Shown in pieces: positions 3,698 through 63,510 of a DNA stretch of 64,000 nt. Under the pieces are notes generated by a model, which saw only the letters and a program-made list of their open reading frames with translations, was not told the DNA's origin and did not search any database. Every line of letters begins with the position of its first letter. Within the stretch, counting starts at the first letter, position 1. A program made the position numbers and the translations under genes. This DNA is from a virus (taxonomy: Duplodnaviria > Caudoviricetes), in IMG/VR virus record IMGVR_UViG_3300001487_000106, positions 1 to 64,000 of that record. The stretch is one strand, 5' to 3'.

Positions 3698-6600
3698 TTA
3701 CTTACTTTCTTTTTCATCATATATTTCTTTTAACGTACGTTTTAATTCGATAATACATTTATTACCAAGAGCAGTTAAAAGAATAGACGGAGTCATACGT
3801 TTAAGTATAGAGTTTGATGCAATAATTGTACTTACTTCTTCTTCGGGTCTAAAACTACTCCATGGTTCATATCCCCCTGGAATAATTTCACCTATTGTAT
3901 TTTTTAATGCAGTAAAGTTTGCAATCTTTGAACCGATTTCAAGTGGCTCTGAATGCTTGATATAAAATTCAATCATCACACCGCCCTCTTCGATTTTCTG
4001 TCCTTTAATTACACCAAATTTATTTGGTTCGATTTTATTAGTCGTTTCGTTTAATAATACACCACATTTTACTATACTATCTTTAGATTCTGGGTCGTAC
4101 TGTTCGAGGAACTTCTTTTTTCTATTTATTTGGTTATAGTAATTACTTACTATTTTTCTTAAACTTGGTGACATCTCATCAAGTTCTACAGTTGAGTATA
4201 TTTTAATATCCTCAATGACTCCAGAATATTTTGAATGTATATCATTTCTACTTCCCTCAAGCAAACTCTCCTGCTCATCAGTACTAAGATTTGCAAGGAG
4301 CGTATTAAGAGAATTATCTTCATAAGATGTATCAAATTGGATTAAAGAGTCTCCAACTTTTATTTCTTGACCTTTCTTAACCATATATTCAACATTGGCA
4401 TTTTTACCAATTGTAGCTTGTTTTACAAAGCACATCTCAGTTGCTGCATCATCTGATAACTTTTCGGTTATCATAGTAGCATCCTGATATGTATTGTACG
4501 TAGACATTATTGCAACTTTAGTAAGTGTGCCCATATTCATACGACAGTTATTAAATTTATCATTGGTAAAAAAGTCTTTGTGATAAGCAAGCACATCATC
4601 TTTCTTAAATTTGTCACCAACCTTTAAAGGTGTTATGAGTTGGTTACTAAGGAAGAATCCGCCACCACCATTTTTAACTATTTTATTACCGAGGTCAACT
4701 GCTCTGCATTTACCAGAATTATACTTTACAATCATCACCTTACTTACTTCATCATAATCAACAACAGTGCCAGCTTCATCGGCATTAACAACAAAGTCTG
4801 ATGACAATTCAAATCTGCACACTTCTTCCATACCATTTGATATTAATACAGGAGAAGATTTTTTTACAGGTATAACGTGCTTACTTTGTTTTATAGCATG
4901 ACCGAGTCGTGTTGGGTCATCTCTTGTTGCTCCAAGTGGAATTGATAGTTCGCCAGGTGAAAATAAATCAACATCACGTAAATCTTTAAGATCGTTATCT
5001 TTTAAATCAACATATCCACGAAGTGATTTAACAGATGGATTCATTGTCAGTGTTTTCATAACTCCAGCGCCAGCATCGGGAGATGTTGAAGGAGATATAA
5101 TACCAGTACATGTTTTATCATATGTTCTCTTAGCAAGTGTATATGATTCATCAAGGTTTGCACCTCTAAATCCCTTACTCGATATGCCTCTTGTCATTTC
5201 AAGTTCGAGAATCGGGTTTAATGTAGAATAATCTTCTACAGTTTTAAGTGCTAATACTTCTTTTATTACACAATCCTGAGGAACTGAAAATGGTGTTTTA
5301 CCATTAGAATTTCTATACAGGATATATTTCTTTGCAAGTCTCTCATAAAGAATTGCTGGTATAATTTCGTTACTACGAATTCTCGACAGACCTTGATTTA
5401 TTTCTGGTGTATATTGAGAATCTGATAATAGTGAAACTGCATATATAATTATCTCAACTAAATCAGTAGGAAGATTGATATCTTCACAAACTTCTATTGT
5501 AATCGGGTCCATCATGAACTCGTATACATTAAGAAGAGCATTTGCTATTGCAGCCTTACCATATACCTTTATGAGATATGGCATATATGGTTCTTTAGTA
5601 TCCATCTCTGCTATTGTATATTTAGATGTATCAATAAGTCTAAAACCATTGATAAGTAAATCAATACCAACGGTCGATTCGTATATAAAATAACAGTCAG
5701 CAAATCTTAAATAGTTTTCATTCGGTTTAAGAGCTGGAAGTTTGTCTTCTAAACGATATGAAACTTTACCTTTTTTAAGGAGTGAACTTAAACCTTCCCA
5801 AAAACCAATAAGTAATCCAACAGCAACATACTGACTCATTACCTTAGCTCTAGTATACATAAGTCTCTTAGGAGCTTTAATTGAATCATATAATGCTTTA
5901 CTTTCATTATCAAAATTTTCAAGAAGTAACTCCATTATTCCTTTTTCATCATCTGTCTTCTGTGTTTTATTATTAATAAATATAGGACTACCCAATTTAT
6001 CTAATCCAATAAATAAATAGTTTTTAGGAATAGAAATATTCTTGTTTGCAGCAAATTCATGAGCTTCGTGTTGATCAAAATACAATTGCATTTTGCCATT
6101 TTTGTACTTAGTAACTACTTTTGATAGTTCGTCATATTCAATAGTAGTTACATATTTATTATTTATTGATAAGGCGTTTCCAAATGTAAAATGTGATTCA
6201 AGATTTTCAGATTTAGACAGTGCAATTTTAAGTCTCTCAATTGAAGATAAAGACTTGGTACCAACACGTTCAATAAACATCTTGTTATAGTTTGTAGTCA
6301 ACTGAACTATATTTTCACTTGTTTTAACAACTGGATATAATAGGTTTTGTTTTTTAATAAGTTTTCTATTACCACCTATATAAAGGAACTTATCCTCTAC
6401 AAATTTAGGAATATCAACTTTTATTGTATGACGTTTTCTGTTACTATCTTCAAGATATATAGTGTATGTATCTTTATAATTTAACTCATCAGATGTATCT
6501 TGAATTTTTATATCTCTTACATACATAGGAAGAGATTTATTGTTGAGAGCCAAAATTGCATTTGTAATATCTTTAGGCATCAACTTTTCGTTATATGTCT

Positions 6601-13235: not shown

Positions 13236-13644
13236 ACTGTATCTCTATAAGGTCTATCTTTTCGACAGACATATGATCTATAAGATACTTACTGGCTTCG
13301 GTCTCTGTTAATCTACCATTATTTGCTACTGGAGATTTACAATAATCAAAACCATTTATTTTGAATTTAATTAATTCCTTATCATTGGATGCATTTTCGA
13401 TAAATTTATCAATAAATGATTCTACTGATTCATCATCAAAAAGTTCATCGCTGATTATTTCGATTTTAATATTTAAAATCTTTTCATCATTTTCAAGATG
13501 AATATATCCTTTTGTGAGTAATTGTTTCCATTGCTCATTGGTTATTTTAAACTCATCAGGTATATATTCATTAACTGATGTAAAGGTATCTAGTTTGGAT
13601 AGTGGCTGTTTAATTGTCAAGTCAATCCTTTTTTTCTTGTTCAT
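13198..13644 (-). CDS. Hypothetical protein, tandem paralog B
   Basis: Shares KQLLTKGYIHLENDEKI and CKSPVANNGRLTETEASKYL with 13656..14093. Confidence 0.75.
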   Translation of the reverse strand: MNKKKRIDLTIKQPLSKLDTFTSVNEYIPDEFKITNEQWKQLLTKGYIHLENDEKILNIKIEIISDELFDDESVESFIDKFIENASNDKELIKFKINGFDYCKSPVANNGRLTETEASKYLIDHMSVEKIDLIEIQYAGEKFYNVLCD

Positions 13645-13655
13645 TTCATCGCTTC

Positions 13656-14093
13656 CTATTCATTTGGATAACTAAGTTCAAAAGATATTACTTCTTGAGT
13701 CGACATAAAATCCATAAGATACTTACTGGCTTCAGTCTCTGTTAATCTACCATTATTTGCTACTGGAGATTTACAGTAATCGTAGCCATTTATTTTGAAC
13801 TCGTCTAACTCTTTATCATCTGATGCGTTATTGATAAAATTATCAATAAGCGCATCGATGCTTTCATCTCTCATAATATTATCATCCAAAAATTTTAGAT
13901 GTATATCTATGATCTTCTCATCATTTTCAAGATGAATATACCCTTTTGTGAGTAATTGTTTCTCCTGTTCGTTGGTTAATTCAAACTCAGCCAAATCATC
14001 GTATGACTTAATATCAAAAGTATTTATTTTTGATATCGGATGTTTGATATCAATCAATACTTTATCTTTTTCGGTATCGTTCATTGTTAACAC
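13656..14093 (-). CDS. Hypothetical protein, tandem paralog A
   Basis: Near-duplicate of 13198..13644; RBS AAAGGAG. Confidence 0.75.
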   Translation of the reverse strand: MLTMNDTEKDKVLIDIKHPISKINTFDIKSYDDLAEFELTNEQEKQLLTKGYIHLENDEKIIDIHLKFLDDNIMRDESIDALIDNFINNASDDKELDEFKINGYDYCKSPVANNGRLTETEASKYLMDFMSTQEVISFELSYPNE

Positions 14094-42596: not shown

Positions 42597-42737
42597 ATTT
42601 CAATGATAAATAAAAAAAGAGAGTAGTGATATAATAAAATTCACTACTCTCTTTTTTTATTTCAATAAAGTTAGTTTACGGATATGATAAAACATAACAA
42701 TAATATCATATCTTCAAGTAAGTGAGGTGAATATTTA

Positions 42738-46216: not shown

Positions 46217-47914
46217 TTGTTGCTCAAAACTCCTAAAAGGATAAATAACAAATATGGTAAATATTTTCTAGCTGATGAAAGTGTCGATACAATACCAGAT
46301 ACACAGGAAATATTTATTGAAACGAAGAAAAGACAAGATGATATAGACTTACTATCATCAATAGATATTACCGATGATGAAATAGATGATTTAGAAATTA
46401 ACGTGGATTTATCTGATATGGATTTGGAAGATGATGAGCTTCCTGCAGATCTGGATATTGCGGAATTAGACGAAGATGATTATGATGTTGATATCCAAGA
46501 TATCCCAAAAATTCCTAAACCTAAAAAGAAAAAGACTAATAAAAAGAAACCACAAAAAAAATCCAATAAAAATGATGATAAACATATCAATGATATCGAA
46601 CCATTAGATGATGAAAATGAAGATAATTTGGAAGATATCGATTCAATGGATATAGCTGACATCGAACCTATTAGTGATGATGATATATCAGACATTGAAC
46701 CTCTGGAAGATTATACATCCGATGATGATATTGAACCAATAGAGGATGATAGCACTAATAATGATATCAAACCTATTGATGACTCATCTGATGTTGAAAT
46801 TGAACCTATTGATGTTGCGACTGATTCTGATGACATTGAACCTTTGGAAGATGATACACCCGATGATGATATTGAACCAATAGAAGACGATGTCTCTGAT
46901 GACGATGGTAATATCCAACCAATAGAGGATGATAGCACTAATAATGATATCAAACCTATTGATGACTCATCTGATGTTGAAATTGAACCTATTGATGATG
47001 GGACTGATTCTAATGGCATTGAACCAATAGAAGACGATGTCTCTGATGACGATGGTGATATCCAACCAATAGAGGATGATAGCACTAATAATGATATTAA
47101 ACCTATTGATGATAAAACCGATTCTAATGACATTGAACCATTAGAAGATGATGCCTCCGATGACGATGGTGATATCCAACCAATAGAAGATGATACCACA
47201 TCAGAAGAAGACACAACAAATGATGATTCCAGCGGTTCTGATGACTCATCTGATGCATCTGGTGATATCCAACCAATGGATGATAATGATCAGAATGATA
47301 ATGAGAATCAAGACGATCAAGCCACCGATAATAATGCAAGTGGTGATATAGAACCTATGAGCGATGACCAAGATGCAAATAATGAAAATCAATCACAAAA
47401 CAATGACCAAACAGATACAAATGGTGAAAATCAAAATACTCAAGATACAAATTTTAATGATAATAGCGATAATGCATCTGGTGATATCCAACCGATGAGT
47501 GATGATAATCAAAATAATGATGCTGACCAAACAGATACAAATTTTAATGGAACAGGAACAAATCCAAATAATACAGTTCAAGCTGCTCAAAATAATGAAA
47601 AGAAAAAACCTGGTTTGGAATATGATACAACTAGAAAGTACAATCTTTTCAGAGAATATATGTCACTTTACAATGCAATAGATAACTACATATCAAAACT
47701 TGATACAAATATCAAAGATGACTTAGCAGTTAATCAGCTTGTAAAAACAGCAGTTTCTAAATTAAGAGAAGTTAAGGATTTAACATACGATTATATGATG
47801 ATTAAATTTGAAACCAACTCGTATATTCAGTCATTACTCTTTTATCAAAATTTAGTAGTTTCTGTTCAGTTAATATTTAAACTTCTTACCAAAACAAAGA
47901 AAATCAATAAATAA
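46217..47914 (+). CDS. Highly acidic repeat protein (possible scaffold/core protein)
   Basis: Many DI(E/Q/K)P(I/L/M) repeats; helical C-terminal domain; directly upstream of the capsid gene. Confidence 0.55.
   Translation: MLLKTPKRINNKYGKYFLADESVDTIPDTQEIFIETKKRQDDIDLLSSIDITDDEIDDLEINVDLSDMDLEDDELPADLDIAELDEDDYDVDIQDIPKIPKPKKKKTNKKKPQKKSNKNDDKHINDIEPLDDENEDNLEDIDSMDIADIEPISDDDISDIEPLEDYTSDDDIEPIEDDSTNNDIKPIDDSSDVEIEPIDVATDSDDIEPLEDDTPDDDIEPIEDDVSDDDGNIQPIEDDSTNNDIKPIDDSSDVEIEPIDDGTDSNGIEPIEDDVSDDDGDIQPIEDDSTNNDIKPIDDKTDSNDIEPLEDDASDDDGDIQPIEDDTTSEEDTTNDDSSGSDDSSDASGDIQPMDDNDQNDNENQDDQATDNNASGDIEPMSDDQDANNENQSQNNDQTDTNGENQNTQDTNFNDNSDNASGDIQPMSDDNQNNDADQTDTNFNGTGTNPNNTVQAAQNNEKKKPGLEYDTTRKYNLFREYMSLYNAIDNYISKLDTNIKDDLAVNQLVKTAVSKLREVKDLTYDYMMIKFETNSYIQSLLFYQNLVVSVQLIFKLLTKTKKINK
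46590..47500 (+). repeat. Coding tandem repeats (D-I-E/Q/K-P-I/L/M-E/D-D units with higher-order duplication)
   Basis: e.g. ccaatagaggatgatagcactaataatgatat recurs at ~46736, ~46919 and ~47066. Confidence 0.85.
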
Positions 47915-48062: not shown

Positions 48063-49874
48063 ATGGCATTAACATTCATTTCTGAATCCGCTAAGGATTT
48101 CCAGGAGACCGCAACCGTTGGTGGTTTCGGCGCTGGTGTAAAGAACACATTTGATGACATTTTTACTGAGGCTTATAACTCTATGCTTAATAACGGTGTC
48201 GATATGATGATTGATATCAATCCTATTATTAAGAATAAGGCTAAGCTGAACGCTGTTAAGGAGGCTCTTCTGGGCGAACTTAAGACTGAGTGCGCTAATA
48301 TGGATGATCCTGATGGCAGCTATGGTACACACGCTCATCTGTATGAGCAGGTTTCGCAGATGTTTGATAACTGCTGTGAGGATTTCGTCAAGGAGTCTAC
48401 CAGAGTTCCTCAGCTTCTGCCTATCAAGGCTATTGATTTCCCCATTCTGATTAAGCAGCAGCTGAAGCTTGCTACTAAGGATATTATTCAGACCGAGGTT
48501 ACAAAGAGCCCTATAATTAAGAAGCATATTGAGCAGACTTATATTGTTGATAACAATGATAAGACTAAGAGATGGAAGTATCCTCAGTGCTTCTTCACTG
48601 ACGAATTCAAGGAAGTATATGCAGCAGGTAAGGGTCTTCCTATCAAGAACACTGTTGTCAATCTTCCTGCTGTTGACTTTGATGTAGTTGCTAATCTGAC
48701 TGATGCTAATGCTGAGGGTTCAAAGACAAACGCTGCAAGAGAAGAGTTTACTATGGACCTGAAGATCATCAAGTTTGTTGTAGCAGATCCTGATGATGAT
48801 ACTAAGACTATTGAAGTACCTCTGAACAGACCTATGAGAATTAACCTCTCTGATAATATGTGGCTCGGTGGTAAGATTGATACCACTGTTACTGGTTCTG
48901 AAGGTACTGAACTGCACGTTGATGATATCGTTACCGGTGTTGTTGACTTTGTTACTAAGAGGACATCTGTAAACAGCCTGAAGGGTGTTGTTAAGGGTGT
49001 TGTATTTGACGGTTATCTGTCAAATGAAAAGAACGAGAGACACGTAACATTTGATTACGCTCGTGAAGAGATTGAGTGGAAGATTGAAGACGGTACCAGA
49101 GTAAACGTTCCTTATTCTCTCGAGGAGCTTGAGGACGCTAAGGCACTGATGGATATTGACCTCTATAAGAAGACATATAATAACCTCGCAGACTATATGA
49201 CTCAGATGGAAGATTCAACTATTCTTTCATGGCTGGATGAGCAGTTTAATCTGTATGATGGTGTTGAGATTTCTCAGGATGATATCCTTGGTTGGGGTTC
49301 ATTTATCACCAAGAGAGTATTTGACTGTGATTCTACTTCACTGACAACTGCTCTGCCTAATGAGTACATTGAGAAGATGCTCAAGTTTAAGATTGACAGA
49401 CTTATCATTGATATCTGTGATAAAGCTAAGCTTGAGGATATGACCTTCGTTATCTACGGTAACCCCAGATTTATTTCTCTGCTGAATCCTGTAGTAAACT
49501 GGATTACAAGACCTGGTTCCACTGCTAACGGCGTAAAGCTTGACTATAGCTATGGTATCATGACATCTGGTGATGTTAAGGTTCAGGTAGTTTCTACTAA
49601 GAAGGTTAATGCTTCGTATGATGAAGAGAAGAAGGAATTTAGCGGTATTCGTATTATTCCTTTCCCGCTCTCTAACGAACAGTTTACATTCAAGCACTAT
49701 AAGTATACGACTCATATTCTGACCGCTCAGAACTCTGCTTATCGAGCACCTGATCTGCCTGGTGGTTCAATGACTAACCTGATGGGTGTATCTAGATATA
49801 CTAATGCATCTATTCAGGGTATTCAGGCACAGCTTAAGTTTGCTAATGCGGAAGATTATATTAATCTGGATTAA
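48063..49874 (+). CDS. Major capsid protein
   Basis: Strong high-expression codon bias (aag/gag/ctg); processed-looking N-terminus (FVKES); position in the head cluster; size typical of this lineage. Confidence 0.75.
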   Translation: MALTFISESAKDFQETATVGGFGAGVKNTFDDIFTEAYNSMLNNGVDMMIDINPIIKNKAKLNAVKEALLGELKTECANMDDPDGSYGTHAHLYEQVSQMFDNCCEDFVKESTRVPQLLPIKAIDFPILIKQQLKLATKDIIQTEVTKSPIIKKHIEQTYIVDNNDKTKRWKYPQCFFTDEFKEVYAAGKGLPIKNTVVNLPAVDFDVVANLTDANAEGSKTNAAREEFTMDLKIIKFVVADPDDDTKTIEVPLNRPMRINLSDNMWLGGKIDTTVTGSEGTELHVDDIVTGVVDFVTKRTSVNSLKGVVKGVVFDGYLSNEKNERHVTFDYAREEIEWKIEDGTRVNVPYSLEELEDAKALMDIDLYKKTYNNLADYMTQMEDSTILSWLDEQFNLYDGVEISQDDILGWGSFITKRVFDCDSTSLTTALPNEYIEKMLKFKIDRLIIDICDKAKLEDMTFVIYGNPRFISLLNPVVNWITRPGSTANGVKLDYSYGIMTSGDVKVQVVSTKKVNASYDEEKKEFSGIRIIPFPLSNEQFTFKHYKYTTHILTAQNSAYRAPDLPGGSMTNLMGVSRYTNASIQGIQAQLKFANAEDYINLD

Positions 49875-49962
49875 TGCAGTTGTAAAAAATGATTTATAAG
49901 TAAAATAGAGAGTACAGTTTCTGTACTCTCTATTTTTTATCAAATTTCTATCAAAAACCAAT

Positions 49963-50047
49963 AACCTCATGGGTACTAACGCTGCTGTTCAAGGGTATTC
50001 AGGCACAGCTTAAGTTCGCTAACGTTGAGACTTATATTGAGATATAA
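49963..50047 (+). pseudogene. Degenerate second copy of the capsid gene 3' end
   Basis: NLMG-TNAAV(+1 nt)QGIQAQLKFANVETYIEI* vs NLMGVSRYTNASIQGIQAQLKFANAEDYINLD*. Confidence 0.8.
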
Positions 50048-50121
50048 TTGTGCGTTAATAATTTACTCCGAATTTTTATAAAAAAAATAAGCCCGACACA
50101 TATCAAGTGTCGGGCTTCATC

Positions 50122-50478
50122 TCATTCAGACTGACATCTCTTATGCCAGTCTGGTATAAGAGATGTCATTTCGGTAACTGAGAATCCTTTTCTCTTTATT
50201 TTTGTGTATCTTCTATACACAAAAATAAATTTCTCATAATCAGGGTCTTTGAAACCTGCCCCGCAGGTTCTACCTATATCTTCTGCGAGGTCTAAAATAC
50301 GCCCAGTTACCACCCCAGGCATGTCATTCTTCAGCCCTGAATAGAAAAGCCTTATCGCTACCTCTAAATTCTCATACTCAGGTGGATCTACAAATGCCTG
50401 GATAGCCATGGATAACCAGTAGCTTCTCCAGTATTTCTCTGTTTTTCTATTAGCTTTTTTTATTTGTCTTTTATTCAT
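50122..50478 (-). CDS. Small early hypothetical protein
   Basis: RBS GAGGAGG; early-type motif at 50575-50584; terminator 50089-50118. Confidence 0.75.
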   Translation of the reverse strand: MNKRQIKKANRKTEKYWRSYWLSMAIQAFVDPPEYENLEVAIRLFYSGLKNDMPGVVTGRILDLAEDIGRTCGAGFKDPDYEKFIFVYRRYTKIKRKGFSVTEMTSLIPDWHKRCQSE

Positions 50479-50482
50479 AATA

Positions 50483-50558
50483 AATCCTCCTCAGGATTAT
50501 TTCGTTTTTCTGACAAGGGATAACGAAACAGACTTGACATGTCTGAAAGAACCCTTTT
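50483..50558 (-). promoter_or_regulatory. Structured 5' leader, copy 1 (pseudoknot + SD hairpin)
   Basis: Aligns and covaries with 51024..51098. Confidence 0.6.
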
Positions 50559-50599
50559 ATTTATTTTCACTAAGATATTATATAAACAAAAAAAAACGA

Positions 50600-50635
50600 T
50601 TTACGGGGAACGTACTAAAAAATGGAATATACAAT
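50600..50635. repeat. 36-bp direct repeat, copy 1
   Basis: tttacggggaacgtactaaaaaatggaatatacaat, identical at 51207-51242. Confidence 0.95.
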
Positions 50636-50761
50636 TTCTTGAGATAAAAACAAGTATATATAAAAAAAAGAACGCTGTGTAAGATTGAATCTTACACAGC
50701 GTTCTTTTTACCAGAAGCACCACATGTAACGCGGTTGAAACCCATGCAGCGCTTCTAAACA

Positions 50762-51016
50762 TTAGAGAAGCTCTCTGAGCTTCTCTATTCCCTTTATGAA
50801 TCCTATATCAGGCACCTCCTCAAGGTTTGAAATCAGAGCGTTAATGACCGATTCAAAACTTTCTTCAGTCAGCTGATCTCCTATGGGATCAGCGATTGAA
50901 TTTGCGGCTGCTAAGATAGCGCAATCAGTATTAGATTGAAGTGATAACAAATCATAATAGAAGAGGTCCATGATGATGTCGTGAGCTCTGTTTGCTCTAC
51001 CAACTATATTTTTCAT
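50762..51016 (-). CDS. Small early hypothetical protein (84 aa)
   Basis: Start moved to MKNIVG after RBS AGGAGG; early-type motif at 51182-51191; terminator 50666-50708. Confidence 0.75.
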   Translation of the reverse strand: MKNIVGRANRAHDIIMDLFYYDLLSLQSNTDCAILAAANSIADPIGDQLTEESFESVINALISNLEEVPDIGFIKGIEKLRELL

Positions 51017-51023
51017 ATTATTA

Positions 51024-51098
51024 GTGCCTCCTAGCACAATACTTTGTTTTTGTGACAAGAGTAAACAAAGGAACATAGAAAGTTCGAAAAACTCTTTT
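51024..51098 (-). promoter_or_regulatory. Structured 5' leader, copy 2
   Basis: Same stem order and spacing as copy 1, with compensatory changes. Confidence 0.6.
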
Positions 51099-51206
51099 AA
51101 ATAATTTTTATGTAATCTTCTTATAATAACTAACTCAACGCCTTCGATATGAAGTTGATGCTATTATTTGATTACACTGAGATAGTATATAAACAAAAAA
51201 AATCAC

Positions 51207-51242
51207 TTTACGGGGAACGTACTAAAAAATGGAATATACAAT
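51207..51242. repeat. 36-bp direct repeat, copy 2
   Basis: Identical to 50600-50635; overlaps the late motif taca ataata taa (51237-51249). Confidence 0.95.
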
Positions 51243-51261
51243 AATATAAAGAAATCCTTAT

Positions 51262-52527
51262 ATGAAAGGAGTGTCATACACTTTGAAAATAAATCTCAAC
51301 AAAGACAAATTCAAAGAAATAGATAATGCATTTTCAGTCTTAATAGAAGACCCGCATAATAAAGCAGCTCTTGAAATTATAGAGAAATCTCTTACTGAAT
51401 GTTTTAAAGGAAAATTTACTATCAATGTAGTTAGCCCTACCAATGGTAAAATGTCTCCATTTTTTATTATGTCAGTATTTCCTGAGATGGATACTGTTAG
51501 TAAAATAATAAATGTAGTATCATCAGATGGTAATAAAAAAGATGATATTATAAGAAAGATATGGGAAAAGAATACAAACTGGGTTATAGAAATTGACGAA
51601 CGTATTTTTAATAAAACTGTGATAGAATTTACTCCCACAGAACTAACAGCTTTATTAATGCATGAGATTGGTCATGTAGTATTCTCTAATTCTGTACCAT
51701 ACAGAGTAACGACTGTTCTTCAATATGAGATTGCCCAGTCACATATGGAAAATAAAATATTACTTAAAGATCAATTCTTTAGGAAAATTTTATCTCTTCC
51801 TATTCTTAATGCTTGTGTAGCTGACGGTAAATCAAAGGATTCAATTAAATTTGAATTAAAAGCTGATAAGTTTGCTAAGAAAATGGGATATAGCAAAGAA
51901 TTATTTAGTGTATTGAATAAATTACTCAAATCTAATATGTATCCCAAGGGTAATCCTGATAAAGATATGGCAGCTATTACAAAATTTTCTATGGAAACTA
52001 TTGATCAGCTCAGAACACGTCAAGATCAACTAATGAAAAGAAATCTTATATCACTTAAGAAAGAATGTGCTAGTCCGTATATTGAAAGTGTTATAACTGA
52101 TTTCTATAATACATTTTTTCAGGAGCATGAAGATAGTTCAATGAGCAGTGAAAAGAAACTTCGCTGCATGAATGAAAGAGTTGAATATCTTATATATACA
52201 ACAGAGAGTCTTTTAACGCGAAAACTGGAAAAAATTGATCCTGCGACTTTTGATTATATAGATATAAAGATTCAAGAAATTAAATCTGAGTCTGATAAGA
52301 TGATGATAGTAAGTTATATTCATAGTAAGTTAGATATAGTTGAATATTATATATCTATACTTAATGACCCAAAACTTTCGAAGAAATACATCATACCATA
52401 TTCTATTGAACAACTTGAAATGATTAAAAAGAAGCTACTTCAGTCTAGAGCTAATGCAATGGCATTTAGAATTCCCGAAAGACAGAGAGGACTATTAATT
52501 GCATGGCCCGAAAACTATGATGGGTAA
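51262..52527 (+). CDS. HExxH zinc-metallopeptidase-like virion/head protein
   Basis: ALLMHEIGH and downstream ELKADKFAKKMGY. Confidence 0.7.
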   Translation: MKGVSYTLKINLNKDKFKEIDNAFSVLIEDPHNKAALEIIEKSLTECFKGKFTINVVSPTNGKMSPFFIMSVFPEMDTVSKIINVVSSDGNKKDDIIRKIWEKNTNWVIEIDERIFNKTVIEFTPTELTALLMHEIGHVVFSNSVPYRVTTVLQYEIAQSHMENKILLKDQFFRKILSLPILNACVADGKSKDSIKFELKADKFAKKMGYSKELFSVLNKLLKSNMYPKGNPDKDMAAITKFSMETIDQLRTRQDQLMKRNLISLKKECASPYIESVITDFYNTFFQEHEDSSMSSEKKLRCMNERVEYLIYTTESLLTRKLEKIDPATFDYIDIKIQEIKSESDKMMIVSYIHSKLDIVEYYISILNDPKLSKKYIIPYSIEQLEMIKKKLLQSRANAMAFRIPERQRGLLIAWPENYDG

Positions 52528-58021: not shown

Positions 58022-58056
58022 ACATATCTATTTACGGTTTCATGTTGTGATTGAAA

Positions 58057-58098
58057 TTAATCAATCACAATATCGCAATCATTAAAATCGGGATACAT
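58057..58098 (-). CDS. 13-codon small ORF MYPDFNDCDIVID in a structured RNA
   Basis: Perfect RBS AAGGAGGTGA; early-type motif TATATATTAT at 58213-58222 (-); terminator downstream. Confidence 0.45.
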   Translation of the reverse strand: MYPDFNDCDIVID

Positions 58099-58297
58099 TT
58101 TATTCACCTCCTTATTTTTTTAAGTATCCCGTAAATAGATAATAATACAAATAACGGTTTGTATCCTTTAAAAACCGTTATTTTTTATTTGTATTATTTT
58201 TTATGCAAAAAAATAATATATATGTATTTATTCTGAATATGCGGTTTTATTATCATTATAACGTTACTATAATTTTTTATTGAAAGGAGACATGATT

Positions 58298-60519: not shown

Positions 60520-63510
60520 ATGCCGCAATCTATACAGATAGTACCTAAGTACTCATATCCGTACGTTGAAACTGTAATCAATGATAATACAAAGGTTACT
60601 GAGACAAATACTGATACTAGGATTGATCCTTCAGTAACTTATGCATTTCCGTTCGTTTCATCTAAGGGTGTGGACAATGTATTTGTAAGAAAGACGTCGT
60701 ACGATAGTTTTGTATCGACATATGGCACTTCTAATTATAAGAAATATGGTCAGCCTCTGATGATGCCTCTGGCACTTCTGAGAAAGCCTAATACTTATGT
60801 ATGGGGTATGCGTGTAATGCCTGAGAATGCTACATATTCTAATGCAGTTATTTCTCTGTATTATAAGGCTGACAAAACTAATGATACCGTTAAGGCTAGC
60901 GAAAGACGCTTCCGTATGAAGTTCATAGTTAAGTTCCTTGAAGGTATCAGTGATATTGAAACATTCAATAAAAAGTATGTTGAACTTGATGGCGCAGAGT
61001 TAGTTAATGATAAGTATGTTGATGACGAGGGCTACACTCAGGCTCCTGTTATGGGTATCCGTGTTGCTGGTAGAGGCAAGTACGGCGATAACTACTCTGT
61101 TCATATTGACACAAATAAGTCATATGAAAAAGAATACGGTATCAAAATGTATGATTTTGTCATCATGAATAATGAGGGTGGTCTTAACAAGATTGCAACC
61201 TATACTGGTTCAATTGTTTCATCGTCTAAGTATGATGCATCAACTCTTGTTAATGATATCCTTGAAAATAGCAACATTGGCGATGTTCCGGTTTATATTT
61301 CCATGAACGAAGCTGGTGTTGAAGATGTATACGATGCATATGTATCATTCCTTACTGAACTCTATCCTTCACTTGAGGCAGAGTATGATGAGACATTTGC
61401 TAAGTATGCTGAAATTTTTGCAAACGTATCTATTAGCAGAGAATCACTCACTAACATGGTTAATGGCAATGAGAGAGTTCCTACCGGTATTATTGCAAAA
61501 GATGCAGACGGTAATGATGTGAAGCTCTCTGATGCTGTTTCAGAACTTCAGAAAATAATGTCGATGATAAAGGATTCTAATCCTGATAATATTATTGACA
61601 TTGACGAGTTTGACCCGTTCTTTGCAAAGAAAGTTGCAAGCACTGAATTACTTCCTTGTATCATGTATCCTTCAGAGGTTCCGAAGGGTGGTATTCCTGC
61701 CGGTGCAAATCCTGCAGATTATACTACATCAAAGCTTATGCCTTCATTCGGCTCTGTAAAGGGTGTTGGAGTAAACTATGGTACAAATGGTTACTTCGAT
61801 AATCCCAGAATTCTTGATACTGATGGATTCATTGTAACTTCAAAGACTGTTGCAGTTGATGCTGAGGGTGAAACAGTATTCCCCAAGGAAGTTGAAGTTC
61901 CCGCAACAATCGTTAAATTCGTAGATTCAACTGATAATAGCTATTATATCAATAGTGGTACAGCTACTATTCCCGTTTATACACATTACAATGCTGATGG
62001 CACAACTGTTCAAGTTGATGTTGTTACATTCGCAGCGGCTACATCCACTACCGAAGGTGCTCTTGAAGTTGTAGCTAATGATTATACTGGTAAAACAGTA
62101 TATGCCGTAGCAACTTCTGGTGATGCTGGCGCTCTTGAAGTTGTAGCAGATGATGCTGATCCTTTTGATTCTGAAACACAGATTAAGATTAGCGATGTTA
62201 CAGGCATCACTGTAAATGTTGGTGATTATGTAACCAAGACAGAGATTCCTTTTGACCCTGAAACACAGATTAAGATTGGTGAAGTTACTGGCATCTCTGT
62301 TGTTGTTGGTGATTATGTAACCAAGACTGTGACAAAGGAAGACGAAGTTGTTAACACAGATGAAGTTACAGCTAAGATTGAAGCTGGTGAACTTACTCGT
62401 GTTGAAGATGCTGATCCTGAAAAGACTGTTACCGTAACAAAGTATTATCGTGAAGATGGTGTTACAGAAGGTGTTGAACCTATAAATACTAATGCTTCCA
62501 AGTATTACTATGAAGATGGTAAGGAATGCACTACTGATGTTACACAGTGGACAGTAGCACAGGAAATTGATGAATGCTATAAGAATGCATTTAACGGTAC
62601 TTTTGATAGAAAGGTTCTTTCTTCAAGAAGAATTCCTGTTACTGCATGGTTTGATGCAAACTATAGTTATGAGGTTAAGCAGGTTCTTGCAGAACTTGTA
62701 GTTGTAAGAAATGATGCTCCTCTGTATCTTGACTGTGGTATTGAAATGGAGTCATTCTCTAAGTCTAATATCAATAGTCTCATTCGTGATTATGCTATAT
62801 TCAGTACTATAGGTTCTGATAAGACTGGTATTGAGAATCATTGCCTGATCTCGAAGAATACACAGCACTTCATGGTAAGAGAAACTCCTTCTCAGAAGAG
62901 AGTTAAGGTTTCCATCACTTATTTCCTTGCTCAGCAGTTTGCTGATCATGTTATTGACTATGGAACTCATATTCCTATGGTTAAAGCAAAGGCACAGCTC
63001 ACTGGTCATATTAGAGATACTCTCGAGCCCTCTATTGAAGACTATGAGGCTGATCTCAAGGAAGAGCTGTATCAGAATAACTTTAACTATTTCGAGACTC
63101 TTGATGATAATGTATTCCAGAGAGCTACTCAGACAACAGCACAAACTGATCTGACTGATCTTTCTGAAGAGAATAATGTATTTACTCTTTATGCAATCAA
63201 GAGAATAATAGAAACCGATATTCATAGTAGACTCTATGACTTTGCTGATGCAAGTGAAAGAGAGCACTTCTCTGCATTTGAAAAAGCTAAGTTCTCCGAT
63301 TGGACTGGTTCCAAGGTTCTTTCAATTGATATAGAGTTTAGAGTTAATAAGTGGGAGTTTGATCGTTCTATTTTACACTGCTATGTTGCAGTTGTATTTA
63401 GAGGTCTTCAGAAGCGTGCTATTCTCGAAATTGATATCAATAAGAGAACATATGAAGATAGCACTAACACTGATGACAATGGTTCTACCACTGGAACTAT
63501 TATGCTGTAA
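60520..63510 (+). CDS. Tail sheath protein with inserted decoration modules
   Basis: PYVETVIND, SSKGVDN, YGQP, MRVMPENA, GRGKYGD, FDANY, LSEENNV, V.FRG; late motif at 60439-60451. Confidence 0.85.
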   Translation: MPQSIQIVPKYSYPYVETVINDNTKVTETNTDTRIDPSVTYAFPFVSSKGVDNVFVRKTSYDSFVSTYGTSNYKKYGQPLMMPLALLRKPNTYVWGMRVMPENATYSNAVISLYYKADKTNDTVKASERRFRMKFIVKFLEGISDIETFNKKYVELDGAELVNDKYVDDEGYTQAPVMGIRVAGRGKYGDNYSVHIDTNKSYEKEYGIKMYDFVIMNNEGGLNKIATYTGSIVSSSKYDASTLVNDILENSNIGDVPVYISMNEAGVEDVYDAYVSFLTELYPSLEAEYDETFAKYAEIFANVSISRESLTNMVNGNERVPTGIIAKDADGNDVKLSDAVSELQKIMSMIKDSNPDNIIDIDEFDPFFAKKVASTELLPCIMYPSEVPKGGIPAGANPADYTTSKLMPSFGSVKGVGVNYGTNGYFDNPRILDTDGFIVTSKTVAVDAEGETVFPKEVEVPATIVKFVDSTDNSYYINSGTATIPVYTHYNADGTTVQVDVVTFAAATSTTEGALEVVANDYTGKTVYAVATSGDAGALEVVADDADPFDSETQIKISDVTGITVNVGDYVTKTEIPFDPETQIKIGEVTGISVVVGDYVTKTVTKEDEVVNTDEVTAKIEAGELTRVEDADPEKTVTVTKYYREDGVTEGVEPINTNASKYYYEDGKECTTDVTQWTVAQEIDECYKNAFNGTFDRKVLSSRRIPVTAWFDANYSYEVKQVLAELVVVRNDAPLYLDCGIEMESFSKSNINSLIRDYAIFSTIGSDKTGIENHCLISKNTQHFMVRETPSQKRVKVSITYFLAQQFADHVIDYGTHIPMVKAKAQLTGHIRDTLEPSIEDYEADLKEELYQNNFNYFETLDDNVFQRATQTTAQTDLTDLSEENNVFTLYAIKRIIETDIHSRLYDFADASEREHFSAFEKAKFSDWTGSKVLSIDIEFRVNKWEFDRSILHCYVAVVFRGLQKRAILEIDINKRTYEDSTNTDDNGSTTGTIML

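Follow-up and report, generated by a model that had tools for sequence, protein, structure and literature searches.

What kind of RNA precedes the small accessory genes that lie beside the capsid gene of an uncultured tailed phage? The question is raised by a 64,000-nucleotide (nt) stretch of viral DNA (Duplodnaviria; Caudoviricetes; positions 1 to 64,000 of IMG/VR record IMGVR_UViG_3300001487_000106; hereafter the window), in which two minus-strand genes each follow a leader of similar fold, at 50556-50476 (copy 1) and 51096-51014 (copy 2). An earlier note on this DNA, made from the sequence alone, had proposed a new class of cis-regulatory RNA, riboswitch-like, protein-binding or ribozyme, that travels with accessory cassettes. 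Its central idea of a novel, covarying cis-acting RNA associated with such cassettes was borne out by the present analysis, while its riboswitch and ribozyme options were not; furthermore, it had overlooked a triple-helix signal, a link to the promoter and an optional 5′ hairpin domain. The pseudoknot fold was found to be very probably real, and the leader is likely to be a generic cis-acting element rather than a gene-specific sensor. The best explanation, to which we assign a probability of about 0.5, is a portable, generic 5′ untranslated region (5′ UTR) module that acts on mRNA stability or translation.

Each leader was read as two helices in the order a-b-a′-b′, with a hairpin inserted in loop 1, followed by a separate hairpin that carries the Shine-Dalgarno (SD) sequence. 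All stems listed by the earlier note were present in both copies, at the places it had given, when the minus strand was read. The elements read from the sequence are as follows:

50556-50552 with 50519-50515, minus strand: stem a of copy 1, AAGGG/CCCUU
50549-50546, minus strand: putative third strand in loop 1 of copy 1, CUUU
50545-50529, minus strand: inserted hairpin of copy 1, CAGAC (50545-50541) with GUCUG (50533-50529)
50528-50522 with 50506-50500, minus strand: stem b of copy 1, UUUCGUU/AACGAAA
50514-50507, minus strand: loop 3 of copy 1, GUCAGAAA
50498-50493 with 50488-50483, minus strand: SD hairpin stems of copy 1, AAUCCU/AGGAUU
51096-51091 with 51062-51057, minus strand: stem a of copy 2, AAGAGU/ACUCUU
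51089-51086, minus strand: putative third strand in loop 1 of copy 2, UUUC
51085-51071, minus strand: inserted hairpin of copy 2, GAAC (51085-51082) with GUUC (51074-51071)
51070-51063 with 51049-51042, minus strand: stem b of copy 2, CUUUGUUU/AAACAAAG
51056-51050, minus strand: loop 3 of copy 2, GUCACAA
51037-51034 with 51027-51024, minus strand: SD hairpin stems of copy 2, GUGC/GCAC

The exact core CTTGTCANAAAAAC was detected in the window at these two sites only, and at up to two mismatches it gave 6 matches where 3.8 were expected. Of this core, which had been described as conserved, the GUCA and the A run are invariant across the family described below, while the CUU belongs to stem a and varies. 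By themselves the two window copies are weak evidence, and the case depends on the homologues.

Homologues were sought with covariance models. The first model (R1) was derived from five copies, and its structure comprised stem b and the inserted hairpin, with stem a excluded; a second model (R2) was run on the same set and on metagenome loci. Relatives of the phage were gathered by a capsid-based search, which gave eight related records, and the metagenome loci were listed by a degenerate pattern that was also used as a variant with a longer loop 3. Matches to R1 were detected in the window's own record (G000, 2 matches), in a complete genome of 250 kb (G001, 10), in a record of 203 kb (G002, 4) and in a fourth record (G003, 3); R2 recovered the same set together with four copies in G009 and one in G010. 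In the metagenomes, at least 15 R2 matches were found in at least 9 loci, among the at least 117 loci listed by the degenerate pattern. The model scores were bimodal, with values either at or above 47 bits or at or below 31 bits. Overall, the family comprises at least 30 distinct homologues, spread over six records of related jumbo phages and at least nine metagenome contigs; 54 matches to the models entered the final alignment (A4), and 30 of these are distinct. A search of this kind had been called for in the earlier note, and it did return further members, with helices that covary. Several candidates were dropped: (i) a partial match of 30.8 bits (L178); (ii) a match of 30.6 bits consisting of a simple hairpin with GUCA and an A run (L213); (iii) two unconvincing loci (L206 and L205); and (iv) G003:16697, which scored 23-24 bits. 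A scan of viral contigs with the core pattern listed 28 loci, with true copies only in L004, a syntenic relative that carries three; the other 27 were judged by eye to be chance matches, based on coding context and absent stems.

Beyond these members the searches were negative. The more distant relatives G004-G008 (capsid proteins 64-81% identical; G006 estimated as 98% complete) gave no match better than an E-value of 0.06, and neither Bacillus phage AR9 nor Staphylococcus phage MarsHill was found to harbor an R2 member (best E-value 0.5, 17 bits). Four of the weak AR9 matches were inspected and proved to be SD-plus-AUG regions, three of which adjoin a terminator-like hairpin. The degenerate pattern gave 104 matches in bacterial and archaeal genomes, none of which was member-like by a simple pairing filter and by eye, without model scoring, and blastn of the window region and of a G001-type promoter-plus-leader against the GenBank phage collection yielded no match. 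When the whole window was scanned with Rfam at gathering thresholds, no families were found; at E-values up to 10, the region 50300-51300 gave 33 weak matches, none overlapping a leader, and at E-values up to 1, the leaders of five other loci gave 9 weak matches, none on a leader. These weak matches fell mostly on or near terminator hairpins, and those of the window region all fell on the hairpin at 50662-50709. Thus, the expectation that the leader belongs to no known Rfam family held in the window and at the five other loci. No description of such a leader was found in the literature searched; a jumbo-phage transcriptome study mentions 5′-UTR-derived small RNAs and, in the available part of its text, no pseudoknot (PMC11512511).

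The three helices, pseudoknot included, were then written onto alignment A4, and the pairs were counted and compared with shuffled and slid controls. Paired cells amounted to 92.4%, compared with 70.5% in the shuffles, and double-sided changes were found in 14 of the 19 pairs. The covariation score was 0.623 compared with 0.203 for shuffled alignments, a value that none of 500 shuffles reached, and the slid controls did not exceed 0.152. Stem b and the inserted hairpin formed part of the model to which A4 was fitted, so these two helices are biased towards structure; stem a lies outside the search model, yet compensatory double changes were detected in 4 of its 6 pairs. Stem b displayed double changes in 5 of 8 pairs. 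The variants of stem a include AAGGG/CCCUU, AAGAGU/ACUCUU, UAGGG/CCCUA, UACGG/CCGUA, GUGGU/ACCAC and GAGG/CCUC, with AUGGU/ACCAU in the extra copy of G010. Against this variation, loop 3 reads GUCA followed by three to four mostly A residues in all 30 distinct sequences, the GUCA being invariant despite the varying stems that flank it, and stem a retains G-C pairs, of which G5-C42 is also invariant; the A-rich loop 3 may accordingly cross the minor groove of stem a. A second GUCA is present in the loop of the inserted hairpin in 11 of the 30, and the junction between the helices contains between zero and two unpaired nucleotides. The postulated H-type pseudoknot, whose loop 1 carries a hairpin, is, therefore, supported by covariation in both of its helices, and the fold is, as judged from the alignment, under selection. 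Because compensatory changes occur in three helices, together with the pairing rule described next, this selection acts at the level of RNA folding rather than of DNA identity.

The alignment holds a further signal. The last four pyrimidines of loop 1, directly 5′ of the inserted hairpin, match in parallel orientation the last four purines of the 3′ strand of stem b. A U.A / C.G rule was obeyed in 120 of 120 cells across the 30 distinct sequences, which none of 10000 permutations reached, while an antiparallel Watson-Crick reading of the same columns accounts for only 0 to 2 of the 4 positions per sequence. Three types were distinguished: 6 sequences, copy 1 among them, combine CUUU with GAAA; 12 combine UUUC with AAAG, as copy 2 does; and 12 combine UCUC with AGAG. 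In three sequences with a U.G wobble, where the Watson-Crick partner is a U, the third strand is still a C, which indicates that this strand tracks the purine and not its pyrimidine partner. Three sequences have one or two extra bases in the purine strand, and these are the same three in which the linker of loop 1 is two bases longer. Adjacent C.G-C triples occur in none of the sequences; consecutive triples of this type have been reported to be destabilizing in cells (PMC7583470). Because the parallel rule holds throughout, the sequences imply a major-groove triple helix of U.A-U and C+.G-C triples in stem b. In such a structure stem a would close a loop in which two pyrimidine strands flank the small hairpin and clamp the downstream purine-rich strand, one of them by Watson-Crick pairing (stem b) and the other as a parallel Hoogsteen third strand (U.A-U, C+.G-C). 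The triplex, the inserted hairpin and stem a could together form a rod.

Downstream of the pseudoknot, a linker of 3-8 nt leads to the SD hairpin, which was predicted by RNAfold in 29 of the 30 distinct sequences. Its stems are diverse (GAUUAC/GUAAUC, AUACC/GGUAU, GCCC/GGGC, GUGC/GCAC and others), and the GGAG is located wholly or mostly in the loop. The final hairpin over the SD that the earlier note described is thus present, but its GGAG is mostly shown in the loop and not buried; with GGAG in a hairpin loop, the predicted fold would display the SD. The SD is located 10-17 nt outside the pseudoknot, in its own hairpin, and the distance from pseudoknot to AUG is tight at 21-27 nt. The upstream part is more variable. 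The inferred start is separated from the pseudoknot by 13-15 unstructured nucleotides in copy 1 and in two G003 copies; for the third G003 copy our script found no start, and the upstream layout is the same. Most G001- and G002-type copies have, like copy 2, an irregular hairpin of 43-102 nt beginning at the inferred +1. This 5′ hairpin was observed to be a module of its own that comes in several sequence families, including one with CAACUUACGCAUUC...GAAAGUAAGACG (L042, L056, L059 and L061; G002 at 42662, 152389 and 174534). Since the G002 5′ hairpin also precedes leaders without the pseudoknot, the leaders look as though they were built from exchangeable parts.

An 82-nt block upstream of the two leaders (50554-50635 and 51161-51242) is 89% identical between the copies, and its 23-mer TTTTTTAGTACGTTCCCCGTAAA occurs twice in the window where 0 occurrences are expected. 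At both window copies the layout is CCGTAAA, 17 nt, TATA(A/C)T, 6 nt and a G start; it precedes nine of the ten G001 copies, the tenth having a TATATATTAT-type element, and by regular-expression scan it is present nearly nowhere else in G001 in convincing form. A G001 scan for the −10/start block alone returned 180 mostly chance matches and was uninformative. The virion polymerase of AR9 uses an early consensus of AAATATATATTAT-(6N)-G (PMC5312081). The promoter of the leaders resembles this consensus, from which the putative start site was assigned, with an extra CCGTAAA box 17 nt upstream. Another promoter-like sequence was observed at 58037-58244 on the minus strand, where a long hairpin comes after CCGCATA...TATATTAT, together with a strong SD and an open reading frame (ORF) of 13 amino acids (aa); a CCGTAAA site is located at 58037.

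The two leaders belong to a locus in which two small minus-strand genes sit between the capsid gene and a plus-strand gene of 421 aa, on a viral record of 93 kb with an estimated completeness of 39%. The features of this locus, with the start sites assigned as above, are as follows:

48063-49874, plus strand: major capsid gene (PHROG major head protein)
50122-50478, minus strand: cargo gene 1, an ORF of 118 aa without PHROG or Pfam family
50476-50498, minus strand: SD hairpin of copy 1 (AAUCCU, loop GAGG, AGGAUU) with AUG at 50478-50476
50500-50556, minus strand: pseudoknot core of copy 1, matching at 97.7 bits (R1) and 79 bits (R2)
50570-50635, minus strand: promoter block of copy 1, with CCGTAAA at 50606-50600, TATAAT at 50582-50577 and the inferred start G at 50570
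50662-50709, minus strand: GC-rich, terminator-like hairpin carrying a U run, which separates cassette 2 from the cassette 1 promoter
50762-51016, minus strand: cargo gene 2, an ORF of 84 aa without PHROG or Pfam family
51014-51037, minus strand: SD-display hairpin of copy 2 (GUGC, loop UAGGAG, GCAC) with AUG at 51016-51014
51042-51096, minus strand: pseudoknot core of copy 2, matching at 79.3 bits (R1) and 71.7 bits (R2)
51097-51176, minus strand: optional 5′ domain of copy 2, a long irregular hairpin (about 51177-51110; RNAfold −15.4 kcal/mol) that starts at the inferred +1, with an A-rich linker after it
51177-51242, minus strand: promoter block of copy 2, with −35-like CCGTAAA at 51213-51207, −10 TATACT at 51189-51184 and the inferred start G at 51177, six bases past the −10
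beyond the cassettes, plus strand: gene of 421 aa with a HEIGH motif, as read from its translation

The 30 leaders precede proteins of 46-311 aa that fall into 23 BLASTP clusters, in agreement with the earlier view that the proteins downstream are unrelated. Among the 24 cargo representatives (alignment A5), none was assigned to a PHROG and four gave weak Pfam matches (best E-value 0.0016); these include TIR_2 (E-value 0.0047), HP1451_C, DUF4261 and DUF6278, each in one protein and too weak to name it. Window and G001 share about 94% identity outside 49962-51319. Within that hypervariable site G001 carries a different 5.7 kb (179688-185406; L237 1-5406) with ORFs of 210, 200, 578 and 97 aa, and G003 has one other cassette behind the same flank. 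The proposal that the leader travels with accessory cassettes is supported by its position in hypervariable spots and by the different site content of G000, G001 and G003. Tandem cassettes were found to be separated by terminator-like hairpins in the window (50662-50709) and in the G001 clusters at 12-14 kb and 131-134 kb. Copy 1 also contains a 31-aa ORF (minus strand, 50475-50570), which runs from a GUG at the inferred +1 to a UGA overlapping the main AUG; it was not kept as a conserved feature, as G001-type leaders read GUG UAA, and it is probably fortuitous because it is absent from the other copies.

With the capsid proteins of AR9 and Staphylococcus jumbo phages that of the present phage shares 24% identity, and two RNA polymerase beta-like genes (PF00562) were detected, at 3749-4498 of the window within an ORF of 1424 aa and at 69009-70226 of G001; PF00623 gave no match. 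As expected, the two beta-like genes fit a jumbo phage with two multisubunit polymerases, and the clade that hosts the leader consists of uncultured jumbo phages distantly related to AR9. A leader copy is located at G001:67352, less than 2 kb upstream of the second beta-like gene. That the genes behind the leaders are early, as had been stated in the earlier note, is plausible given the AR9-like promoter and the two beta-like genes, and early expression of the cassettes can reasonably be inferred by this analogy. Other features of the window were also observed. RNA-library contigs from two studies, at 49000-50066, both stop at 50066, about 190 nt beyond the capsid stop codon, a shared end that could mark where a transcript ends or where strain identity breaks off. 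In the region upstream of the capsid gene, 46570-47525 contains dense imperfect direct repeats (units of about 36-180 nt) that are GAT/GAA-rich and appear to encode acidic D/E-I-E/Q-P-I/L repeats; two adjacent segments at 13268-13989, 434 nt apart and 82-87% identical, look like tandem paralogous genes; and a tandem 87-nt repeat, 86% identical, is located inside a coding region at 62160-62332.

What the leader does has to be judged from this arrangement. It is generic towards its cargo, and it is tied to one promoter class and to its distance from the start codon. In the portable 5′-UTR module that we favor, the order would be promoter, optional +1 hairpin, pseudoknot of about 55 nt, linker of 3-8 nt, SD-display hairpin and AUG, with the folded block acting in cis on whichever ORF comes next. 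The leader would (i) shield the message from 5′-end-dependent decay; (ii) insulate the ribosome-binding hairpin from variable flanks, such that any newly acquired cargo would be expressed as an early gene; and (iii) perhaps also give a phage factor a means of handling all members of the class in the same way. A role in stability or translation that is free of any ligand is credible at slightly less than even odds. Only tentatively can it be proposed that no natural major-groove RNA triple helix had been found in bacteriophage mRNAs before this leader, which would be a clamp of the ENE kind with the purine strand in cis, used as a portable 5′-UTR tag of early mRNAs from a dedicated phage promoter, in which the triplex gives resistance to decay or class recognition at the early-to-late switch. 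Several points weigh against the favored explanation. The family is confined to one narrow clade of uncultured jumbo phages, and, as 8495 candidate RNAs have been predicted from IMG/VR, the leader may already be among them unnamed (PMC10690425). Nested single-sequence folds of the two window copies were no better than shuffles (z −1.03 and −0.76), with a tool that cannot score pseudoknots. As the sequences are related and many changes are inherited, cell counts overstate the number of independent events; the triple rule likewise rests on three sequence types and hence few independent events, although we estimate the odds that two further lineages would match their own helix by chance, given any pyrimidine 4-mer in loop 1, at roughly (1/16)^2. 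Contigs from RNA runs X1 and X2 (two studies) cover the capsid gene only, with nothing on 50111-52000, and are uninformative on the expression of the cassettes. No trans-acting factor was identified, and a purely protective role of the pseudoknot is less compelling because the copies with the 5′ hairpin already carry a classical 5′ protector. Finally, RNAalifold, which predicts nested structures only, retains stem b together with the inserted hairpin and joins the pyrimidines of loop 1 to the GGAG of the SD, in pairs with one-sided changes only, so that a competing or switching fold may exist. This pairing is long-range and short (4 bp, with G.U pairs), displays no double changes and would fit any pyrimidine tract; it leaves the tracking of stem b by the C positions unexplained.

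The alternatives differ in how they deal with the same evidence. T4 RegA and RegB act on many early messages by translational repression or cleavage, and the leader could likewise be an operator for a phage or host RNA-binding protein that switches the whole early class off or on by either route. The invariant GUCA of loop 3 between two variable stems, the second GUCA in the hairpin loop, the marking of one promoter class before unrelated cargo and the display of GGAG in a loop, which would suit a nuclease or repressor, are all consistent with such a protein. However, the hairpin-loop GUCA is absent in 19 of the 30 sequences, no candidate protein was identified, and RegA (PF01818) and RegB (PF10715) were not found in G000-G002 by searches that are weak and lacked a positive control; ribosomal protein S21 (PF01165) also gave no match in these records. 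We regard the operator as rather unlikely, and it is compatible with the favored module rather than exclusive of it. Ligand binding is among the three known functions of natural triple helices (PMC7583470), and the fold class of the leader is that of known triple-helix aptamers; as a new riboswitch, the leader would bind a small molecule that stabilizes the triplex pseudoknot, as in SAM-II, SAM-V or preQ1-II, and frees the SD from the loop 1 pyrimidines, turning translation on. The loop 1-GGAG pairing proposed by RNAalifold is what such a switch would use, but its shortness, long range and lack of double changes count against it, as do the 23 unrelated cargo families, which have no known relatives and no metabolic theme, the SD in a hairpin of its own outside the pseudoknot, a helix junction that varies from two unpaired bases to none and hence offers no conserved pocket there, the failure of any Rfam riboswitch model to match the leaders at E-values up to 10 and the restriction to one phage clade. 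A riboswitch, as the earlier note had suggested, is accordingly improbable.

A role in transcription can be argued from position. The put RNAs of phage HK022 are cis-acting antitermination RNAs, and the leader, which is always promoter-proximal, might similarly modify the polymerase to read through the terminators between the tandem cassettes of the window and G001. Against this, each cassette has its own promoter, and the distance to the AUG is tight while that to the start site ranges from 13 to about 100 nt, which points to translation rather than transcription; we consider antitermination very improbable. A self-cleaving ribozyme, the other option raised in the earlier note, draws on the fact that small pseudoknotted ribozymes are common near phage genes, but no Rfam ribozyme model (pistol, hatchet, twister-sister, HDV-like) matches and nothing suggests cleavage. 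The leader could otherwise be nothing more than a repeat for recombination at the DNA level, with an incidental RNA fold, as repeated promoter blocks flank orphan cargo in hypervariable regions in the pattern known for PeSLs (PMC2839356). The most repeated part of the unit is the promoter and not the pseudoknot, though, and incidental folding is at odds with compensatory changes in three helices and with the triple rule. These last two options, ribozyme or mere recombination repeat, have together the slimmest chance of all. A recombination role of the repeated module may coexist with an RNA function; it does not explain the covariation. The portable 5′-UTR module, therefore, remains the explanation that we prefer.

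If this explanation is true, the fold would gain a new setting, that of a compact, covarying triplex pseudoknot acting as generic leader for many phage genes unrelated to one another. A 2020 review recognizes three settled roles of natural major-groove RNA triple helices, namely catalysis, ligand binding and 3′-end stability, and the word 'phage' is absent from its main text (PMC7583470); on the tentative triplex reading, the leader would add a bacterial-virus and 5′-end case to these, and its family would be one of the rare ones whose alignment by itself reveals covariation of base triples. The leader would also be a convenient model, with triples open to swapping between U.A-U and C.G-C. Furthermore, the leader may explain the long conserved 5′ UTRs of early genes in AR9-type jumbo phages, a matter left open in PMC5312081. 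As a self-contained promoter, leader and ribosome-binding site placed before arbitrary ORFs, the unit could serve as an expression part for Gram-positive hosts.

Among known systems, several pseudoknotted riboswitches resemble the leader in shape. The covariance models of SAM-II and SAM-V (which we take to be RF00521 and RF01826) and of preQ1-I, -II and -III gave no match on the leaders in the Rfam scans. In SAM-II, SAM-V and preQ1-II the pseudoknot includes the SD, and the regulated genes have a pathway in common, whereas in the leader the SD occupies a separate hairpin, the cargo is unrelated and loop 1 carries a hairpin. Like the leader as predicted from its sequence, they are 5′-UTR H-type pseudoknots with a pyrimidine loop 1 that forms a major-groove triple helix on helix 2 (PMC6061858). 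The telomerase RNA pseudoknot has the same H-type triple-helix topology but belongs to a catalytic ribonucleoprotein instead of leading an mRNA, and it is not homologous. The leader equally resembles the ENE and MALAT1/MEN-beta triple-helix stability elements, where, as in its predicted fold, an internal loop rich in pyrimidines is closed by a stem, and the two strands of this loop lie on either side of an upper hairpin and clamp an A/G-rich strand by Watson-Crick and Hoogsteen pairing. The purine tract of MALAT1 is encoded in cis in the genome, with G/C positions that interrupt the U.A-U run (PMC7583470); the purine strand of the leader is also in cis, and its A-rich loop 3 may run back along the G-C-rich lower stem. 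The differences are that the leader has only four triples, with four extra duplex-only pairs next to stem a, that the two have no sequence or Rfam relationship, and that ENE and MALAT1 elements protect tails at the 3′ ends of eukaryotic, viral and transposon transcripts, while the leader is found in the 5′ UTR of a bacterial virus, 21-27 nt before the AUG. By its sequence the leader thus has the topology and pairing rule of an ENE-type clamp, and not the action at an RNA 3′ end or poly(A).

The remaining comparisons concern the genomic setting. Early genes of AR9 have a dedicated promoter and long 5′ UTRs with a shared predicted motif whose 'functional significance remains to be established' (PMC5312081); R2 finds no member in AR9. 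Like the two cargo genes of the window, early genes of AR9 lie antisense beside the capsid gene, according to its annotation and PMC5312081. In T4-type phages, PeSLs are short repeats of a promoter and a stem-loop terminator that flank nonessential orphan genes in hyperplastic regions (PMC2839356), and they have been proposed to drive modular shuffling (PMC2839356; PMC4122927). PeSLs combine sigma-70-like promoters with terminators and have no conserved covarying leader RNA, whereas the unit described here has an AR9-early-type promoter, a CCGTAAA box and a structured 5′ UTR. Nonetheless, the window is PeSL-like in its repeated promoter block (82 nt, 89%), terminator hairpin, orphan cargo and hypervariable site, and the outcome that recombination between the repeats would leave is seen here in the different cassettes that G000, G001 and G003 carry at one site.

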